Shown piece by piece: positions 8,636 to 46,494 of a stretch of 64,000 nt of DNA; within the stretch, counting starts at the first letter, position 1, and each line of letters starts with the position of its first letter. Origin of the DNA: Candidatus Woesearchaeota archaeon (lineage in GTDB: Archaea > Nanobdellota > Nanobdellia > Pacearchaeales > GW2011-AR1); NCBI GenBank assembly GCA_964518625.1, contig CAZFHC010000001.1, positions 111-64,110 of the forward strand. Direction: 5' to 3'. Position numbers and translations under genes: made by a program. The notes under the pieces are model-generated. The model was not told where the DNA came from, made no database searches, and worked only from the letters and a program-made list of their open reading frames with translations.

Positions 8636-9730
8636 TTAATTACAATTTGTAACTTTTTGAATTACTGGTTTACAATATATAATATCTTTTTTATCTATTA
8701 CTATTGGTTGTGCTTGTATTAATGTTATTTTATCTGAATCTGTGTAATTCCCATTTACCATATATTCATCTCCTGGTTTTATATCTAAAAGTTGTTTATC
8801 TGAAATATACCTTATAGCATTATATTTATATAAATTTTCTACTTCTTCTGATGAAAGAGCTCTATTGTATATTTTTATTTCATCAAGAGTTCCATTAAAA
8901 TCTAAACTATTTAATAAATTGCTATTAGCCCCTATCACAGAATTTAAAGAATTACTAACCAGTTGTCCAGTAATAGGTGCACTTCCTTTAGGCTCATCAT
9001 TAACATAAGTATTCATTATACTCCCATCCCAAGACATTGTAAGCAAATACCATTTATCTAAATCAAATTCATAATAAATATCATTTGCGATTGTCCATCC
9101 GGTTGTACCCGTAGTCCCAATTAAATTTCTAATTGTAGTTCTATTAAGAAAACCTAATTGTAATACCCCATCTTTTCTAAAAATAGGAGATTCTGATACA
9201 AAATCTGAATTTATTTTAACCCAACTAGATATAGTTAATTGATTTTCAAGATCAAAAATATTATTACCTAAATCAATATAATTAGCTTCTCCATCGAAGC
9301 TTCTTGCTCCTCCAATTTTCCCATCCATTATCCAACTAGTTCCATAGTCTTCGCCACCGACTATGTATTTATCATCGAATGTTAAGTCTAATAACAAATC
9401 ATCTGACTTTTTTGTGTAATAAACAGATCTGTCATACATTCCGAATGTAGCATTTGTTTGATTATTAATTTTTGTTTGAACTGATTTTATTGTAAATCTT
9501 CCTGTATTTTTCAATGTATATAAAAAATTATTTGTCGATTCTTGACAGTTATAATTAGTTATTGAAATGGATACTCCATCAGGACATTCTGATATTTCAT
9601 CTGGATTTGTATATAATTTTAGCCAATTAAATACCATTACTGATAAGGAAAGTGTTATACTTATTAGTAGAACATACGCGATTATTGTACTTATTCCTCG
9701 TTTATTATTTGAATACAATAAAGTTCTCAT
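8636..9730 (-). CDS. Pilin-like surface protein with archaeal class III signal peptide and LamG/ConA-like lectin domain
   Basis: The N-terminus MRTLLYSNNKRG|ISTIIAYVLLISITLSL fits a prepilin-peptidase motif ([KR]G then a hydrophobic helix). The C-terminal region has the GTLDEIKIYNRALSSEEVENLY signature typical of LamG domains. Confidence 0.5.
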   Translation of the reverse strand: MRTLLYSNNKRGISTIIAYVLLISITLSLSVMVFNWLKLYTNPDEISECPDGVSISITNYNCQESTNNFLYTLKNTGRFTIKSVQTKINNQTNATFGMYDRSVYYTKKSDDLLLDLTFDDKYIVGGEDYGTSWIMDGKIGGARSFDGEANYIDLGNNIFDLENQLTISSWVKINSDFVSESPIFRKDGVLQLGFLNRTTIRNLIGTTGTTGWTIANDIYYEFDLDKWYLLTMSWDGSIMNTYVNDEPKGSAPITGQLVSNSLNSVIGANSNLLNSLDFNGTLDEIKIYNRALSSEEVENLYKYNAIRYISDKQLLDIKPGDEYMVNGNYTDSDKITLIQAQPIVIDKKDIIYCKPVIQKVTNCN

Positions 9731-10271
9731 CTAATTCCTCCTGTTGTAAAATAAAGATTACTGTGTTTTCTTCTGGGATTGTAAAATAATATACATTGTC
9801 TTCAAATTCTACATTGATATTTTCATTTGGATTTACTATTTCTGTTTTACTACCTACTGTACTTGATGTTGTTAAGCTTCCTGTTTGGACTGTAATTGAA
9901 CTTTGTCGTGATGCAGTCCCTGAGATTGTTTGGTCATCTACTGCTATTCCTTCTGCACCATTATTGTATACTGTTACACTTTTTTTATTCCCGTAAATCA
10001 TTACAAAATTTAAATTTGGATCTTGATCTAAAAGCGTTGCTGAAACTTTACTTACAAAATCTTCTATTTCTTCATCATCTAATTCTGGGTTTTGTTGATA
10101 AACTCTATAATTTTGGATTTGAGCAACTTCCCTGTCTAATATTTCTGAGTAATCGTTTACTTTATTTGATTGGGCTTGTGTTGTTACTTGATTAACTGTT
10201 AAGCTTATACTAAAGATTAATGCTGATATTATTACTGCTGTTAGAATGAAAAACTGACCTCTTTTGTCCAT
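9705..10271 (-). CDS. Pilin-like protein with class III signal peptide
   Basis: MDKRGQ|FFILTAVIISALIFSISL. It overlaps the downstream LamG-pilin gene by 26 nt, so the two are co-transcribed. Confidence 0.45.
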   Translation of the reverse strand: MDKRGQFFILTAVIISALIFSISLTVNQVTTQAQSNKVNDYSEILDREVAQIQNYRVYQQNPELDDEEIEDFVSKVSATLLDQDPNLNFVMIYGNKKSVTVYNNGAEGIAVDDQTISGTASRQSSITVQTGSLTTSSTVGSKTEIVNPNENINVEFEDNVYYFTIPEENTVIFILQQEELDENFIVFK

Positions 10272-10359
10272 GTATTAATGAACGCTAGAGTATTTATAAA
10301 ATACACGTTTCTAACGTCTATAAATATTTAATATATAAGAAAAAAAGAAAAAGAAAAAA

Positions 10360-10500
10360 TTAAAGAATTATTTCGATGCCGTTCTCTGAACGTTCCCATC
10401 TTCCTTGTCCATAAAGACGTTGAAGAAGTTTGTCTAGCTTTGTAGCTTCGACATTAGGATCGTTATTTGGATCATAGAACCTTTGAATTGAAACCTTCAT
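10360..10500 (-). CDS. Small 46-aa protein with strong Shine-Dalgarno, first gene of the pilin-like operon
   Basis: Not in the ORF track because it is under 60 aa. Its sequence is MKVSIQRFYDPNNDPNVEATKLDKLLQRLYGQGRWERSENGIEIIL. GGAGGTGAAAAG lies immediately 5' of the ATG, and a TATA-like TTATATATAAAG lies about 40 nt upstream. Confidence 0.35.
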   Translation of the reverse strand: MKVSIQRFYDPNNDPNVEATKLDKLLQRLYGQGRWERSENGIEIIL

Positions 10501-10534
10501 CTTTTCACCTCCATGATGTACTAAATGAGTATTT

Positions 10535-10548
10535 CTTTATATATAATA
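10535..10548 (-). promoter_or_regulatory. Putative archaeal TATA box for the small-ORF/pilin operon
   Basis: TTATATATAAAG on the minus strand, about 35-48 nt upstream of the ATG at 10500, followed by the SD GGAGGTGA. Confidence 0.35.
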
Positions 10549-10749
10549 TTAAGATTGAAACTATATCTTTCGATAGAATTTTGTTTATATAGTGATTGAC
10601 TTGCTAGTGGTTGTCATGAATTGGAGAGTAGTGCTTTGTAATTTGTAAGTAGAATCGTATTAGATTCCGGTAGTAACTTAAGTTTAAAAGGTCATTTAAA
10701 AGAATGTTGTTTTAAATAAATTTATAAAAGATTTCGCCTAAGATTCTGT

Positions 10750-11019
10750 ATGGATGAGACAACTTGGCATGAGGTTTCTGATAAAGAAAGAGAAGAAATT
10801 AAAAAAAACGCTAAAGATATTTTGAAAGATTTTTCTAAGAAATTGAATGCAATTAATTGTGATAAGAAACATTTTGAGTCTTCTATTAGTAATAATGGTT
10901 TACGTGAAGAAGGAGAATGTTGGGAAACTGAAGAGGATTTTAGAGATTTAACTTTGCTAAATGCTCCATTTGTTGAAGATGAGTTTATTACAGCTGAGAA
11001 AGCAAGTTGGAACAAATAA
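10750..11019 (+). CDS. Hypothetical acidic protein
   Basis: 89-aa ORF with no recognisable motif. Confidence 0.35.
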   Translation: MDETTWHEVSDKEREEIKKNAKDILKDFSKKLNAINCDKKHFESSISNNGLREEGECWETEEDFRDLTLLNAPFVEDEFITAEKASWNK

Positions 11020-17728: not shown

Positions 17729-19156
17729 CTATTTTTTCTTCTTCTTTGTGTAAAACTTAATTGCTTCTGCTAGTTCTTTGTGATTTTTTGCATATGTTTT
17801 GATACTGATTCCTTTTTTATATGCTTCACATGATTGTACTAAAGCTTTTGCTCCTGCTTTTGTTCCTTTTGGATGTGCATGACATCCTGCACCCATTGTT
17901 GTTATGAAGTCTATGCTTCCTAGAATATCTATGAATGGTTTCAATAATGTTGGATCTAATCCTCCCGAAATTATTGGAGCACATTTTTTTACACCTCTCC
18001 ATGAATCATCTTCTAATATAAGATGATGAGCCATATCTTTATGTGTTAATTTTATTGAATCTCTATCTTTTGCAGGGATTTTAGACCATGATTGTTCAAA
18101 GAAATGACCTTTTGCTTGAAATTGTAATATTCCTCTTGCTGATGTTGCATCTTCTGTTGGTGTTCCTGCCATTTTACCTACCCCTGCTGTTCCTGTGTGA
18201 ATTCCTGATGCTCCTGCTAATCTTGCAAATTTTGACAAAACCAATACTGTCATCCCTATTGGGTTTTCTGGCCTTGTAAAAGCTCCATGAGCTGCTCTAT
18301 GGAAGTGTATGAAGACCTCTGGATATCTTCTTCGTAATGTTTGTACTGCCATCCAACCTGCTGTTATACCATCTATTAAAAAAGCATAACTTCCTGGCTC
18401 AAATCCGGCATTTTTAATCATTTCACATCTTTTAATCATTGTATCAAAATCTGCAGCAGATACATTAAATGAATGAACTTTCTTCTTTTTTGTTTTCTTC
18501 ACAGCTTTGTCCATTGCTTCTTTTACATGAGCAACCATTTTTTCATAAGGACAAAAATCTTGATCTGCTTGTGGTTCATCATTTTTTACAAAATCTCCAC
18601 CACCAACCCAAAAGTCATAACAGACTTCTGCATATTCTGCTGATGTTAATCCCATCTTTGGTTTTACAATTGTTCCTAATATTGGTCTATTATAAACATT
18701 CAAATATTTTCGCATATCATCTATTGTATAACTTGGTCCATCATATTGTTCTAGCATTGCTTCTGGAAACCAAACATCTAATAATTTTAATGCTGATACT
18801 TCTTTCATCCCTAACACATTTCCTATAATGTATGTTAATATGTTTTGAACATTTCCTGTTCTATCGAATAATCTCCATGGATATGCTATCCAAACCAAAT
18901 CCCTTTTTTGATCAATTTGATAAATTAAAGCGTTCATTTCTCTTGAAAATGCTGTTTCTGTTTGAACTTTAAAGTTTGTTCCTGTTGAAGATTCTGCTGC
19001 AATTTCCGAGGCTGCTTGTAGAATATTTAATCCCTCTCCTGCTTTTAGTGTAAAAATTCCTAGAAGATATTCACCATTTTTTACATTTGGTATATCAAAG
19101 TTTACATACGCTTTTTGCTTATCATTAAGTGTTTCATAAAGTTCTTTTATATCCAT
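17729..19156 (-). CDS. rbcL: Ribulose-1,5-bisphosphate carboxylase large subunit, type III (archaeal/II-III-like)
   Basis: GGGDFVKNDEP matches the GGLDFTKDDEN active-site region. Catalytic-loop motifs (KPK.GL; HFHRAAHGA; GGLDP) are present. No small-subunit gene is nearby. Confidence 0.85.
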   Translation of the reverse strand: MDIKELYETLNDKQKAYVNFDIPNVKNGEYLLGIFTLKAGEGLNILQAASEIAAESSTGTNFKVQTETAFSREMNALIYQIDQKRDLVWIAYPWRLFDRTGNVQNILTYIIGNVLGMKEVSALKLLDVWFPEAMLEQYDGPSYTIDDMRKYLNVYNRPILGTIVKPKMGLTSAEYAEVCYDFWVGGGDFVKNDEPQADQDFCPYEKMVAHVKEAMDKAVKKTKKKKVHSFNVSAADFDTMIKRCEMIKNAGFEPGSYAFLIDGITAGWMAVQTLRRRYPEVFIHFHRAAHGAFTRPENPIGMTVLVLSKFARLAGASGIHTGTAGVGKMAGTPTEDATSARGILQFQAKGHFFEQSWSKIPAKDRDSIKLTHKDMAHHLILEDDSWRGVKKCAPIISGGLDPTLLKPFIDILGSIDFITTMGAGCHAHPKGTKAGAKALVQSCEAYKKGISIKTYAKNHKELAEAIKFYTKKKKK

Positions 19157-22041: not shown

Positions 22042-22764
22042 ATGATTGTTAAATTAGATACGCCAAAGTTATTGTCTGACGCTGTTGCTGTAATTTCTGA
22101 ACTTGTTACAGAAGTTAAAATAAAACTTTTAGAAGATGGTATGAGTATTATTGCTGTTGATCCTGCAAATGTTGCTATGGTTATTTTTAAATTACCTCGT
22201 GAAAGTTTCTCTAGTTATGAAGCTAATAATGATGTTTGGGGTATTAATTTGGAAAGTTTGAAGAGAATTTTAAAAAGAGCTTCTGGAGCTGCTAGTATTA
22301 TATTTGAGCAGGAAGATAATAAGTTAAATATTGCTATTTATGATAAAGTAAAAAGAAATTTTACATTATCTTTAATTGATGTTGATTCTGAGGAAAAAGA
22401 TGAACCTAGTTTAGAATTTTCGACTACTGTTGAATTGAATTCCACTGAGCTTGTCCAGTCTATTGAAGATTGTGCTGTTGTTGCTGAAAGTTGTTCGTTT
22501 ATTGCTGGAGAGAATTTTTTTGTTGTTGAAGCTAGTGGTTCAATTAATTCCTTTAGAGCTGAATTTAATGATGATAATGGAGAGATTAATGGTATTGGTA
22601 AAGCTAAATACTCTTTGGAATATTTGAATAAGTTTATCAAAGCTCAAAAAATTTCTAATAAAGTTATTTTAAGATTCTCTGATGATTATCCTTTAAGGAT
22701 GGATTTCCCTGGAGAAAAAATGGGAATTGGTTTTGTATTAGCACCAAGAGTTGAAAACGATTAA
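22042..22764 (+). CDS. pcn: DNA polymerase sliding clamp PCNA
   Basis: About 240 aa with a two-domain PCNA pattern (KLL.DAV..ISELVTEV.IK..EDGMSI.AVDPANVAMV...L), an acidic interdomain loop, and a C-terminal LAPRVE. Confidence 0.75.
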   Translation: MIVKLDTPKLLSDAVAVISELVTEVKIKLLEDGMSIIAVDPANVAMVIFKLPRESFSSYEANNDVWGINLESLKRILKRASGAASIIFEQEDNKLNIAIYDKVKRNFTLSLIDVDSEEKDEPSLEFSTTVELNSTELVQSIEDCAVVAESCSFIAGENFFVVEASGSINSFRAEFNDDNGEINGIGKAKYSLEYLNKFIKAQKISNKVILRFSDDYPLRMDFPGEKMGIGFVLAPRVEND

Positions 22765-22768
22765 ATTT

Positions 22769-23635
22769 TTATTTATACAAATATTTTAGTTCTTTAATTG
22801 CTGGGTTTTGAAATAATTTTTTTAATGCTTTTTTTTGAATTTGTTCTATACGTTGTTTTGTAAGATTATACTTTTTACCGATTTCCTGAAAAGTTTTTTC
22901 GTTTTCTTCTGAATTTATTCCAAATCTTTCTTTTATAATATCTGCCTCTCTTTCATTTAAACTTGAATTAATTATTTTTTCTATATCAGAAACACCGCTA
23001 CTTGATTTTAATCTATCAATATCCTTTGTTGGACTATAATAATTAGTTCCTATATTATCAACTAAAGATGTATTATCCTCTAATATTGGGTAATCTAGAG
23101 AAAGAACAGTTTTTCCAATTTCAAGTAAAGAGTTTAGTTCTTTTTTTGTCTTTGATAAAATTTTTGAAATTTTTTCTATAGAATACCCTTCTGAACGATA
23201 TACTTTTACTTTACTTAATATTTCTCTTTTTTTAAGTGGTATTCTTATGCCATATGCATTTTCACCCAATGCCTTATAAATTGATTCTTTTATCCAATTT
23301 ACACTATATGTCGATAAAGTACCAATGGAAGGATCATATTTATCTATAGCTTTCATTAAACCAATATTCCCTTCTTGAATTAAATCTATTAACTCCATAC
23401 CTTTATTTTGGTAATTTTTAGCTATGGAAAATACAAAAAATAACTGAGATTTAACCAAAACATCTCTATACTCAGGAGTCATACCTTCTTCTAGTATTTT
23501 CTTACCTATCTCTTTTTGTTCTTCAACAGATATCCTATATTTATCAGCTTCATTCAAATATATTTCTAAATTATTTTTTTTATCAGTATTCAAATATATT
23601 TCTGAATGTTCTTTATTATTAATCATATCTTTCAA
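22769..23635 (-). CDS. Bacterial-type sigma-70 family RNA polymerase sigma factor (group 3/FliA-SigB-like size)
   Basis: Region 2 is LIDLIQEGNIGLMKAIDKYDP...TYSVNWIKESIYKAL. Region 4 is LNEREADIIKERFGINSEENEKTFQEIGKKYNLTKQRIEQIQKKALKKL. Confidence 0.8.
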   Translation of the reverse strand: MKDMINNKEHSEIYLNTDKKNNLEIYLNEADKYRISVEEQKEIGKKILEEGMTPEYRDVLVKSQLFFVFSIAKNYQNKGMELIDLIQEGNIGLMKAIDKYDPSIGTLSTYSVNWIKESIYKALGENAYGIRIPLKKREILSKVKVYRSEGYSIEKISKILSKTKKELNSLLEIGKTVLSLDYPILEDNTSLVDNIGTNYYSPTKDIDRLKSSSGVSDIEKIINSSLNEREADIIKERFGINSEENEKTFQEIGKKYNLTKQRIEQIQKKALKKLFQNPAIKELKYLYK

Positions 23636-40758: not shown

Positions 40759-41739
40759 TTATTTACTATTTTCTTTTGTAATCCAAGTTGGAACTTTTGA
40801 AGAAGATGTTTTTTTGTTTTTCTTAAACTTCTTCTTCAAATTATCTACTCCTATTTTCTTATATATAGTATAGAACGCTCCTAATATTGCTATAACAACA
40901 ATATACCAAATCCAATTATTGTTTGAATTTGAAGTTTCTTCTCCTTTTTTCATACCTATACCTTCTCCAGGCATAAAAGTTGCATTCATTAAATTTTGAT
41001 TCATGTTAAGATTCAATTCCATGTTTACAATTCTTCGTTCTCCTAAGCTATCTGTATAGTATATGTCAAAATCAAAGTTATTAGTATCTTCTGCATCTCG
41101 TTGTGGAATTGCTGTTATGTCGAAATTAACAATTGCATAATCTCCACTATCTAGATTTCCTACCATTTGTCCATCTGTACTAGTTGCCTTGAAGTTATCT
41201 TGTTCTGGAACTCTTACAACAACTGAGTTAGCTGTATATTTACCGATATTAGCAATTGCAATAGATATTTCTGTTGAACTAGAATCTTGAATTACTGCAT
41301 CAAAATCTGTCCTTAGATCTTCTATCTTAATATCAAATTCCTCAACAACATTTCCTCGTTCTTCTCCATATTTTACACTAATTGTTGAATTTGCATCTAT
41401 TGCATCTGAATCAACTCGTAATGTTATTGGAATCATCCATTCTGTTTTTGAATTTGATACCCATGTACTCCCTTCTAATTTATGGATTAATTCCTCATCA
41501 CTATCTACTGAAAATGGATATGATGGAACTAATTCAAAATATGCACCAGTACATTCTGAATTATCTATACCTGAAATTTGGAATAAGACATCAACATATT
41601 CTCCTTGTGTTGCAGGATATGAATCTTGATTTACCATTGTTACACTTAAATCACAATTTTCAGATGCTGAAACTTGACTTATTAGAATTAGACTTAGTAA
41701 TAGAAATAAACTTGTAGAATACTTGTATTTGTTTTTCAT
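40759..41739 (-). CDS. Secreted beta-rich protein with C-terminal TM anchor, encoded between the ABC ATPase and permease
   Basis: Signal peptide (LFLLLSLILISQVSASE). C-terminal anchor WIWYIVVIAILGAFYTIYKKIG followed by a basic tail. Confidence 0.45.
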   Translation of the reverse strand: MKNKYKYSTSLFLLLSLILISQVSASENCDLSVTMVNQDSYPATQGEYVDVLFQISGIDNSECTGAYFELVPSYPFSVDSDEELIHKLEGSTWVSNSKTEWMIPITLRVDSDAIDANSTISVKYGEERGNVVEEFDIKIEDLRTDFDAVIQDSSSTEISIAIANIGKYTANSVVVRVPEQDNFKATSTDGQMVGNLDSGDYAIVNFDITAIPQRDAEDTNNFDFDIYYTDSLGERRIVNMELNLNMNQNLMNATFMPGEGIGMKKGEETSNSNNNWIWYIVVIAILGAFYTIYKKIGVDNLKKKFKKNKKTSSSKVPTWITKENSK

Positions 41740-45318: not shown

Positions 45319-46494
45319 TTAAGCTCTCCTTATTACATATATAGATAGAACGATTAAAAGTATTGTTATAATTACTATTCCTACAAATAAATAAAGTTTC
45401 ATGTCTAATGTTTTTGTTGTTACATTGATGTTTGATGTTACATCATCTACTAAGACTGAATCTCCTGAGATTGATCTTACTTGATAGTTTAATATATATG
45501 ACATTGGTGTTGCATCTTTATCTACTTCAAAATCAAATATTGCATAACCTGTCTCTCCTACATCTAAGCTTCCAACATAAGAAGACTTTTCTGTAAATGA
45601 AAATGGTTGATCACTTCGTTCATATACTTTTAAACTTACATCTTTTGAGTTTTCTCCACCTATATTTTGGATTGCTAGTCTTACTTTTGTAGTTGACCCT
45701 GGGTATATTCCTTCTGTTAATATTTTTACATTCGTAATTTCAAATTGTGGGATTGAGAATACTGGTAGTTCTATTTCTAATGTTTTTGTTTCATCATTTC
45801 CTTCTGATGTATAATCTAAATCTAATGTTGCTGTGTAACTTGCTTCTGATAGTGTTTTATCTGTGTCAAAATAGAATGTTAATGTTTTGGATATTCCTGA
45901 GGCTAAATCACCTAAATGCACTTTGTCTGAATATGAACTTGATGGAGAGAACCCTTCTGGTAAGTTTAATGTTGCGATTAAGTTTTCTGATGTATAATCA
46001 CCTGAATTCTTTATTGTTACATCAAATTTTACCTCTTGTGAATTTGGTATGATTTTTTTTGGGGCTGAAATAATTTCTCCTAGTGTTATTTCTACTGTAT
46101 CACTGATTATTCTTAATTTAAATTCATCATTCCAGTCATCTGATCCGTCATCTAGATTAAATTCTAAATCATAAGATTTTGAGTCTGCATCTTTATCTAC
46201 TTCTATCCTGAAATTGAAAGTCTTTGTCTCACTTGAATTGATTAACGTTGTAATTTCATCATCTGTTATAAATTCAAATGGATCATCTTCTTTGAAGTCT
46301 AATGTCAGATTTTTTGCTATGCTTGCATCGTTTGTTATTTTTAATGTTAACGTAAAAATATCATCTACAGTTGCTGAGTCATAGCTTATTTCTAAGTCAT
46401 AGTCTTCTACGTATACTGAGTCTGAATATGCGCTTACTGTTGCTAGAAGCATTAGTGTTGCAAACATTATTGTTAATACATTATTTACTCTCAT
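45319..46494 (-). CDS. Cell-surface protein (signal peptide, repeated beta-rich domains, C-terminal TM anchor), first gene of the PadR-MMPL operon
   Basis: N-terminal MRVNNVLTIMFATLMLLATVSA. C-terminal YLFVGIVIITILLIVLSIYVIRRA. Abuts the PadR gene. Confidence 0.5.
   Translation of the reverse strand: MRVNNVLTIMFATLMLLATVSAYSDSVYVEDYDLEISYDSATVDDIFTLTLKITNDASIAKNLTLDFKEDDPFEFITDDEITTLINSSETKTFNFRIEVDKDADSKSYDLEFNLDDGSDDWNDEFKLRIISDTVEITLGEIISAPKKIIPNSQEVKFDVTIKNSGDYTSENLIATLNLPEGFSPSSSYSDKVHLGDLASGISKTLTFYFDTDKTLSEASYTATLDLDYTSEGNDETKTLEIELPVFSIPQFEITNVKILTEGIYPGSTTKVRLAIQNIGGENSKDVSLKVYERSDQPFSFTEKSSYVGSLDVGETGYAIFDFEVDKDATPMSYILNYQVRSISGDSVLVDDVTSNINVTTKTLDMKLYLFVGIVIITILLIVLSIYVIRRA

Follow-up and report, generated by a model that had tools for sequence, protein, structure and literature searches.

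DPANN archaea live attached to hosts, and their mode of attachment and the determinants of their host specificity are largely unknown. The locus described here raises the question of whether a short run of genes, standing alone amid housekeeping genes, could specify a structure of attachment. It lies in a 64,000-nt stretch of contig CAZFHC010000001.1 of a Candidatus Woesearchaeota archaeon (the whole 64-kb stretch is called the window below), and consists of a small open reading frame (ORF) of 46 amino acids (aa), a gene for a 188-aa protein, and a gene for a 364-aa protein with a LamG/concanavalin A (ConA)-like domain. An original prediction, made from the letters of the window alone, had described a pilin-like operon of three consecutive minus-strand ORFs, the last two overlapping by 26 nt, and these coordinates were reproduced exactly (Table 1). 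Our answer, held with moderate confidence, is that the two overlapping genes encode co-produced type IV pilin-like surface proteins, i.e., a detached adhesin cassette of a minor pilin and a lectin-bearing pilin. This conserved cassette of two pilin genes, with an exposed module that changes from one close relative to the next, is a concrete candidate for an attachment determinant.

Relatives were surveyed by scanning one genome per species, and 34 loci were found to encode relatives of the 188-aa protein (contigs are cited below by L numbers, L009 being the window's own). Since nearly all 34 loci are in metagenome-assembled genomes (MAGs) named Woesearchaeota, Pacearchaeota or Nanoarchaeota, the DPANN origin that had been surmised for the window is confirmed; the closest relatives are Candidatus Woesearchaeota MAGs.

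Two overlapping genes for pilin-like proteins

The six frames of the window were scanned with a FlaFind-like rule, i.e., [KR][GA] followed by a permitted +1/+2 pair and 20 hydrophobic residues, near a start codon. The class III motif was found at the N-terminus of the 188-aa and 364-aa ORFs and of no other ORF, the remaining three matches being internal transmembrane segments or a shadow ORF, in full agreement with the prepilin-type signals previously claimed for both genes. The signal reads KRG/QFFILTAVIISALIFSIS in the 188-aa protein (MDKRG/QFFILTAVIISALIFSISLTV; the slash marks the proposed cleavage site) and KRG/ISTIIAYVLLISITLSLS in the 364-aa protein (NNKRG/ISTIIAYVLLISITLSLS); the +2 residue of the former, F, is outside the strict FlaFind set used in this rule-based scan. 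In both proteins a hydrophobic stretch of ~21 residues begins right after KRG, the charged leader is 4–11 residues long, and no AxA-type site follows the hydrophobic stretch. The motif is kept in 60 representatives of the 188-aa family and in 16 orthologues of the 364-aa pilin. Cleavage of the 188-aa protein had been placed between Q and F; the expected site is instead G/Q, because of the family consensus K-[RK]-[GA]/Q-F-F and the alignment of its signal region with the KKG/vS of the pilin. A class III signal peptidase would cut both prepilins behind Gly, and the Gln at +1 of the 188-aa protein is reminiscent of the EppA-processed pilins.

The 188-aa protein belongs to a large family: an exhaustive profile search, with representatives taken at 50% identity, returned 665 representatives with E≤1e-3, of which 156 reach E≤1e-10, and most are ~190–200 aa long and matched over their full length. 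The N-terminal consensus is M-[ND]-K-[RK]-[GA]-Q-F-F-[LI]-L-A-A-V-I-I-S, and within 60 diverged representatives the K was present in 56, G or A in 59, and Q in 59. The family is without a Pfam model and without a sequence relative among PDB structures, and the 188-aa protein matched no NCBIfam pilin model. When it was compared with the pilin core of the 364-aa protein by hhalign, the signal/transmembrane region alone could be aligned, on which ground paralogy of the two proteins was rejected. Two matches of the 188-aa protein below cutoff, DUF7261 (E 0.011) and NA-iREase3 (E 0.006), were reproduced in 2 and 1 of the 60 family members, respectively, and were set aside as noise or transmembrane-helix similarity. 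The AlphaFold2 (AF2) model shows just a long N-terminal helix (residues 3–50) followed by strands; its Foldseek matches (cytochrome oxidase subunit II, aminopeptidases) are meaningless at the confidence of this model, and no conclusion about the fold was drawn from them. We propose that the 188-aa protein is a minor pilin and the partner of the protein encoded by the following gene. Homologues were also seen on contigs binned as bacterial, namely, a 6.48-Mb Desulfatiglandales contig (L023), a contig of a Cyanobacteria MAG (L021), which carries the whole trio, and one of a Bacteroidetes MAG (L032). The short L021 and L032 contigs look mis-binned, and the L023 copy, which lacks an adjacent pilin, could reflect transfer or a chimeric assembly.

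A pilin-core gene directly follows the gene of the 188-aa family in 32 of the 34 loci, the exceptions being L023 and L032, the latter a single long ORF on its short contig. In 18 or more of 33 loci an ATG is so placed that the two genes overlap by exactly 26 nt, and the rest have overlaps of 1–4 nt or gaps of 34 nt or less. The Shine-Dalgarno (SD) site of the second gene in the window (Table 1) has counterparts in close relatives, where SD-like GGAGG, GGTGG or GGGAG is found 5–8 nt upstream of the second gene.

The ConA-like domain ascribed to the distal gene was verified by its Pfam match (E 7.9e-23; 81.7 bits against a cutoff of 27.6; model positions 1–150 of 151). In L001/L014, where synteny is the same and the first protein is 71% identical to that of the window, the orthologue of the distal protein is 159 aa long and aligns to residues 1–~104 and ~314–364 of the 364-aa protein; this LamG-less form is present in three independent assemblies. 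Because the 159-aa orthologue skips the intervening part, LamG in this clade is an insertion of ~210 residues between two cysteine pairs (Cys49 and 62, Cys355 and 363), where it sits in a variable loop of the core. Sixteen short orthologues (156–190 aa) define this core by Ser at +2, Tyr at +7, an N-x-G-x-F motif and the four invariant cysteines, which fit an extracellular disulfide-bonded domain. The profile of the core family matches the archaeal pilus subunit 8fk7_A (E 3.5e-5) over positions 7–85, i.e., past the transmembrane helix, and more weakly Natrinema PilA2 (8gi2), 9myg and Iho670. The assignment of the distal gene as a LamG-bearing pilin is upheld by the 8fk7_A match, with UpsA and arch_flag_Nterm matches that stay below their cutoffs.

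What the core carries differs from locus to locus. LamG is inserted inside the core in the window, L015, L016 and L018, and stands C-terminally, after a complete core, in L017 and L041; a C-terminal module with the fibrinogen-related motif CDMETDGGGWT (Pfam E 3.7e-6) is found in L027; L026, L031, L035, L037 and L039 have modules without a Pfam match; and about 20 loci have no module. The Laminin_G_3 domain was confirmed in the orthologues of L016, L017 and L041, and also in those of L004 and L006. A modular pilin combines a complete pilin moiety with a separate recognisable domain, and the window protein does so with its 159-aa moiety and ~210 residues containing LamG. Variable modules on one conserved scaffold are the pattern expected of an exposed, fast-changing adhesin.

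The original prediction had noted that no assembly ATPase, platform protein or prepilin peptidase is present in the window, and indeed no T2SSE, T2SSF or A24-type peptidase was found among its annotated or scanned genes, nor any GxGD multi-transmembrane peptidase candidate. In the window, as in loci of the L038 type, the pair stands alone amid housekeeping genes (ArgRS, Mre11/Rad50, proteasome, FttA). The pilus context that had been proposed is found in more distant loci: in about a dozen (L020, L026, L030, L031, L036, L039, L042–L047) the pair heads a longer co-directional cluster, whose other members are between one and three additional small pilins (ISPLIATVLLIG type) and a class III protein of the type G/QVW(V/I)ETVIYT, together with a protein of at least ~510 aa, reaching ~1,500 aa in some of these loci, and as a rule a pair of membrane proteins. 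In L031 Pfam assigned the last three to T2SSE (the ATPase, E 2e-30) and T2SSF (both platform proteins, E 9e-15 and 5e-17), and in L042 it found a T2SSE ATPase (E 3e-34); the others of these dozen or so loci were judged by gene order and sizes. In L019 the pair is divergent from the remainder of the locus. No prepilin peptidase was found among the downstream genes of three relatives' filament loci.

The class III protein just mentioned (~175 aa, K(R)G/QVW(V/I)ETVIYT) is encoded just before the T2SSE ATPase in L031 (12972–13502), L019, L020, L026, L039, L043 and L047; it has Glu at +5, as do bacterial type IV pilins, and had no significant Pfam match. For the annotation of such genomes the gain is that the 188-aa KRG/QFF family, with its 665 representatives, is recognised as heading type IV filament loci of Woese- and Pacearchaeota; the distinct four-cysteine pilin subfamily and the tiny conserved 46-aa family should help likewise.

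The 46-aa gene and its probable transcript

The small ORF is 46–47 codons long in every lineage and exactly 46 in five diverged loci, among which the pairwise ratio of nonsynonymous to synonymous substitution rates (dN/dS) is 0.12–0.22, with synonymous sites near or beyond saturation. The low dN/dS, the constant length and a near-invariant SD identify it as protein-coding, and thus the conservation and codon-level constraint on which the original prediction had staked this gene are present. Searching 5.8 billion proteins with its profile returned 10 clusters, all of 46 aa; more distant copies, of 47 aa, are on the MAG contigs L017 and L021. The gene is found in 6 of the 34 related loci, all of the nearest clade, and because of this restriction it does not count as a general component of the pilin module. 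Wherever present it precedes the 188-aa gene by 55–121 nt in the same orientation, whereas the neighbours of the trio change from lineage to lineage; identities between lineages are 52–67% for the small protein, 38–71% for the first pilin-like protein and 31–58% for the second.

No match to the small protein was found in Pfam (E≤1), NCBIfam, PDB sequences, PHROGs or PADLOC, and neither a signal peptide nor a transmembrane segment was detected in it. Its AF2 model (10 sequences; predicted local distance difference test, pLDDT, 70.6) has a short strand, a helix at residues 15–30 and a hairpin at 34–45, and gave no significant fold match in the PDB. A DUF2283/AbrB identity, considered for the motifs YDP..D and GIEIIL, was dropped for want of a Pfam match at E≤1 and of a PDB match; a phage or defence origin of the trio was likewise rejected, PADLOC being negative and PHROGs being matched via the LamG domain only. 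We take it for a real, clade-specific cytoplasmic protein, which may act as a regulator or accessory factor of the cassette. The gene also exemplifies how small genes are lost in annotation, since the gene caller left it uncalled on the window's own contig (L009, ~9630–9770, corresponding to the window interval of the small ORF in Table 1) and called it on the related contigs L001, L004 and L006.

A strong SD and a TATA-like box had been predicted before the small ORF, and both were found, near-invariant across loci. The octamer GGAGGTGA occurs once in the 64 kb, which is not significant alone (one or more copies in 35 of 100 shuffles). The first five loci aligned agree letter for letter in its core GGAGGTGAA, which L016 and L017 also retain, and L021 has a slight variant of it, GGAGGGTGAG; complementarity was assumed from the canonical CCUCC anti-SD, as the window carries no rRNA. 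In a census of 74 window ORFs, 64 had no SD match of 4 nt or more, three had a 5-mer and none a longer match; genes with the 5-mer include the LamG gene and other second-in-operon genes. The distribution of TATA-like hexamers has a sharp peak between −30 and −25 relative to the ATG, with 30 occurrences for 64 genes versus ~5 in other bins. From this census and this peak the window is leaderless and SD-poor, as had been maintained. The TATA-like box of the small ORF is ~16 nt farther from the ATG than the window-wide peak, which would leave a leader of ~15 nt carrying the SD. RNA structure in this leader was considered and discarded (RNAalifold −0.44 kcal/mol, with no Rfam match in the window). 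Amid mostly leaderless mRNAs, then, a strong SD would mark a leadered monocistronic small gene, and weaker SDs internal cistrons.

The further claim that the small ORF heads the pilin operon is doubtful, for a T-rich tract and a conserved AACATAATTTTATAAA box at ~−29 intervene. A comparable T-tract is present between the stop codon of the small ORF and the downstream TATA box in all eight small-ORF loci, directly after the stop in most of them and ~65 nt after it in L021; its role as a terminator rests on the known function of oligo-T in archaeal termination. Every small-ORF locus has, with minor variation, the motif (C)AACATAATTTTATAAA before the 188-aa gene, and its position coincides with the window-wide TATA peak. 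Given the T-tract and the conserved TATA box at leaderless distance, the small ORF and the pilin pair more likely belong to separate transcription units, the former giving a short leadered transcript and the latter a leaderless bicistronic one. Farther upstream, two AT-rich boxes ~20 nt apart form an imperfect inverted repeat; six lineages preserve them amid variable non-coding flanks, and they may serve as a second promoter or as the operator site of a dimeric regulator.

In several distant relatives a different gene occupies the position directly upstream of the pair. The RNA gene of the signal recognition particle (SRP, 7S) is directly upstream of the 188-aa-family gene in L041 (6056–6305), L031 (9757–9853) and L029 (4576–4672), all on the plus strand by Rfam SRP models, and spurious 'CPVRSCSCETGQALIGAAL'-type ORFs suggest the same position in L034, L035, L039, L040, L043, L046 and L047. 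Rfam found no SRP RNA in the window, and in its clade the small ORF takes the slot directly upstream of the pair. On the other side of the small ORF lies a divergent 89-aa gene (window 10750–11019, plus strand) with its own TATA box at ~−30; it adjoins the trio in L004 too, is one gene removed in L001, and its L004 copy has a weak GatC match.

Proposed assembly, alternative explanations and related systems

How might the pair act at a distance from any filament machinery? After insertion into the membrane, both proteins would be processed by a class III signal peptidase and then incorporated by a type IV filament machine, the genes for peptidase and machine both lying elsewhere. Most plausibly, by analogy with PilA and PilC of Streptococcus sanguinis (see below), the LamG pilin and its 188-aa partner would form a complex located at the tip, presenting the bulky LamG module, which may bind glycans on a surface or on a host cell and so could mediate host attachment. 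The close adjacency of the two genes and their conserved 26-nt overlap lend indirect support to the partnership at the tip. A TATA box of its own would drive transcription of the pair into a leaderless bicistronic mRNA, with translation of the second gene coupled to the first via the conserved 26-nt overlap and the internal SD; the small gene would be expressed from its own short, leadered, SD-dependent transcript, ending at the T-run.

Several observations weigh against such an interpretation. The closest relatives, whose flanks were examined for 8–10 kb on each side (shorter at contig ends), resemble the window in having no ATPase, platform protein or prepilin peptidase there. The 188-aa protein has no detectable homology to known pilins beyond the N-terminal motif, and its AF2 model, from a 5-sequence alignment, is unreliable (mean pLDDT 46). 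Curated models of archaeal pilins did not reach their cutoffs with the 364-aa protein (NCBIfam UpsA, E 8e-7 and 29 bits against 130; arch_flag_Nterm, 18 bits against 20), and Pfam Pilin_N gave no match to it at E≤1. LamG domains are not always lectins, and nothing except synteny in one shallow clade ties the small protein to pili.

The missing peptidase gene and the sub-cutoff pilin models would also be expected if the two N-termini were ordinary Sec signals or uncleaved membrane anchors of generic surface proteins unrelated to type IV filaments. We regard this as very improbable, given the placement of the hydrophobic stretch right after KRG behind a short charged leader, the lack of an AxA-type site, the near invariance of K-[RK]-[GA]-Q-F-F in 60 diverged family members, and the T2SSE ATPase and T2SSF platform proteins encoded in the loci of distant relatives. 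More weight, though still as an unlikely explanation, is given to the possibility that these are class III-signal proteins that are not filament subunits, acting instead as binding proteins anchored at the cell surface, comparable to the sugar-binding proteins of the Sulfolobus bindosome, with LamG capturing glycans or substrates there and not at a pilus tip. There is accepted precedent for a class III-signal, ATPase-dependent system that is not a pilus (PMC4858521; 10.64898/2026.04.22.720090); the pair is detached from machinery in the window and stands amid housekeeping genes in many relatives, and the 188-aa protein is without homology to known pilins. However, the core of the second protein is related to solved archaeal pilus subunits beyond the transmembrane helix, the pair in relatives is co-oriented with two to four canonical small pilins, an ATPase and platform genes in the layout of a pilus locus, and no ABC-transporter partner adjoins it; we accordingly prefer the pilin cassette.

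The 46-aa gene may have a separate explanation, which we consider a real possibility although short of an even one: it may be functionally unrelated to the pair, its synteny being inherited within a young clade, or it may be a regulatory upstream ORF that controls read-through of the T-run into the pilin genes. Its presence in so few loci, its own TATA box, leader and SD followed by the T-run, its lack of a signal peptide or of similarity to pilus components, and its slower evolution than that of either pilin are all in keeping with this; however, it is always 55–121 nt upstream and co-oriented while the genes flanking the trio differ, and a plain spacer ORF would not be expected to show its strongly conserved amino acid sequence or its predicted compact fold. 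The pilin-pair reading can be extended in the opposite direction, to a proposal that we find doubtful as a whole. The trio would then be a self-contained, relocatable tip-adhesin cassette of Woesearchaeota, with a 46-aa controlling or chaperoning factor of a new fold-family, initiator-like KRG/QFF minor pilins, and a four-cysteine scaffold that accepts lectin modules in a loop or at its C-terminus, the swapping of modules setting the host or surface to which the episymbiont attaches, and the whole being plugged into a machine encoded elsewhere.

The nearest functional parallel is bacterial. At the pilus tip of S. sanguinis, the small minor pilin PilA stabilises PilC, a pilin with a ConA-like lectin module (PMC9934059). 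The archaeal pair follows the same principle of an adhesive module grafted onto a pilin scaffold, and likewise joins a small pilin-like partner to a pilin bearing a lectin module of the ConA-like/LamG superfamily. The S. sanguinis pair forms a glycan-binding tip complex, whereas for the archaeal pair both complex and binding are proposed by analogy. S. sanguinis is a monoderm bacterium, and its pilin moieties are unrelated in sequence to the archaeal ones; its PilC modules are grafted C-terminally, unlike the LamG of the window, which is inside the four-cysteine core (that of L017 and L041 is C-terminal); and its genes are inside the pil locus, whereas the window pair is detached from machinery.

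Archaea commonly have pilin genes that stand alone and are served by an ATPase/TadC locus at a distance (PMC4858521). Like the archaeal Pilin_N/UpsA/PilA pilins of the type IV filament (TFF) superfamily (PMC4858521), the window proteins have a class III signal, a [KR][GA] site and a hydrophobic alpha-1 helix, and the core of the 364-aa protein has a profile similar to the solved subunits 8fk7, 8gi2 and 9myg. Unlike archaeal type IV pilins, the latter protein is below the arch_flag_Nterm and UpsA cutoffs, and its four-cysteine core, Tyr at +7 and variable modules set it apart as a distinct DPANN subfamily; the 188-aa protein (KRG/QFF) matches no described pilin family. The full loci of relatives, with one T2SSE gene and two separate platform genes, are like those of Methanococcus maripaludis Epd, system 1 and subsystem 4A, a likeness that assigns no system type; archaeal TFF system 1 and subsystem 4A have one ATPase and two platform genes and are both reported in DPANN, and class III proteins with sugar-binding domains are reported in such TFF loci (preprint 10.64898/2026.04.22.720090). 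Unlike Epd-type loci, the examined loci showed no dedicated peptidase, and the DUF361 motif QxSxExxxL is absent.

Jelly-roll LamG proteins are expanded in DPANN, and some, as in the DPANN archaeon Mia14, are encoded next to type IV pili loci, with a proposed role in host interaction (PMC5498576). They are described there as linked to pili loci, not as class III-signal pilins, whereas here LamG is within the pilin polypeptide. A literature search found no paper combining an archaeal type IV pilin with LamG. What is new here is LamG within the pilin polypeptide itself, in two topologies; a large unannotated KRG/QFF partner family preceding that pilin, with the conserved 26-nt overlap; and a clade-specific 46-aa protein with a uniquely strong SD. 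The advance is incremental, since stand-alone archaeal pilins, modular lectin pilins and LamG near DPANN pili loci were already established.

Feature coordinates and other genes of the window

Table 1. Features of the trio and its upstream region, in window coordinates; distances are from the start codon named in the last column.
Feature	Position	Strand	Remarks
LamG pilin gene	8636–9730	−	364 aa; N-terminus MRTLLYSNNKRGISTIIAYVLLISITLSLS; begins MRTLLYSNNKRGISTII
Whole insert relative to the LamG-less orthologue	8792–9418	−	Roughly residues 105–313
LamG/concanavalin A-like domain	8840–9295	−	Residues 146–297; Pfam PF13385 Laminin_G_3
First pilin-like gene	9705–10271	−	188 aa; N-terminus MDKRGQFFILTAVIISALIFSISLTV; begins MDKRGQFFIL
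Overlap of the 188-aa and 364-aa genes	9705–9730	−	26 nt
SD of the 364-aa gene, AGGAGG	9737–9742	−	Inside the upstream 188-aa gene; 6 nt before the second ATG
TATA box of the pilin pair, TTTTATAAATA	10291–10302	−	TTTATAAATA starting ~−29 from the 188-aa ATG; leaderless geometry
T-rich tract, TTTTTTCTTTTTCTTTTTTTC (T6CT5CT7C)	10339–10359	−	Directly after the small-ORF stop; candidate oligo-T terminator
Small ORF	10360–10500	−	46 aa; N-terminus without signal peptide
SD of the small ORF, GGAGGTGA	10505–10512	−	4 nt before the small-ORF ATG
TATA-like box of the small ORF, AATATTATATATAAAG	10535–10550	−	Starts ~−46 from the small-ORF ATG; near-invariant in 5–6 aligned loci
Upstream AT-rich box 2, GATATAG	10561–10567	−	~−65 from the small-ORF ATG
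Upstream AT-rich box 1, CTATATAAAC	10583–10592	−	~−95 from the small-ORF ATG; GTATATAA in relatives

Two further putative surface proteins are encoded on the minus strand of the window. One (45319–46494) is a 391-aa CARDB/DUF11 protein whose gene is directly upstream of a PadR regulator and two MMPL genes of the same strand; the other (40759–41739), of 326 aa with an N-terminal signal-like segment and a C-terminal transmembrane helix, has its gene flanked by those for an ABC ATPase and a MacB/FtsX permease. No class III signal was found on either.

A 288-aa protein (22769–23635, minus strand) matches bacterial Sigma-70 regions 2, 3 and 4 (Pfam E 4e-14, 7e-14 and 7e-4; region 3 is below its cutoff). 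In all other respects the genome is plainly archaeal, with PCNA beside this sigma-like gene (22042–22764) and the ribosomal proteins L31e and S19e, and a gene resembling a sigma factor is unusual in a DPANN archaeon. The window also carries a gene for the large subunit of RuBisCO (17729–19156, minus strand; PF02788 and PF00016 on the corresponding L009 gene), which fits the form III RuBisCO common in Woese- and Pacearchaeota.

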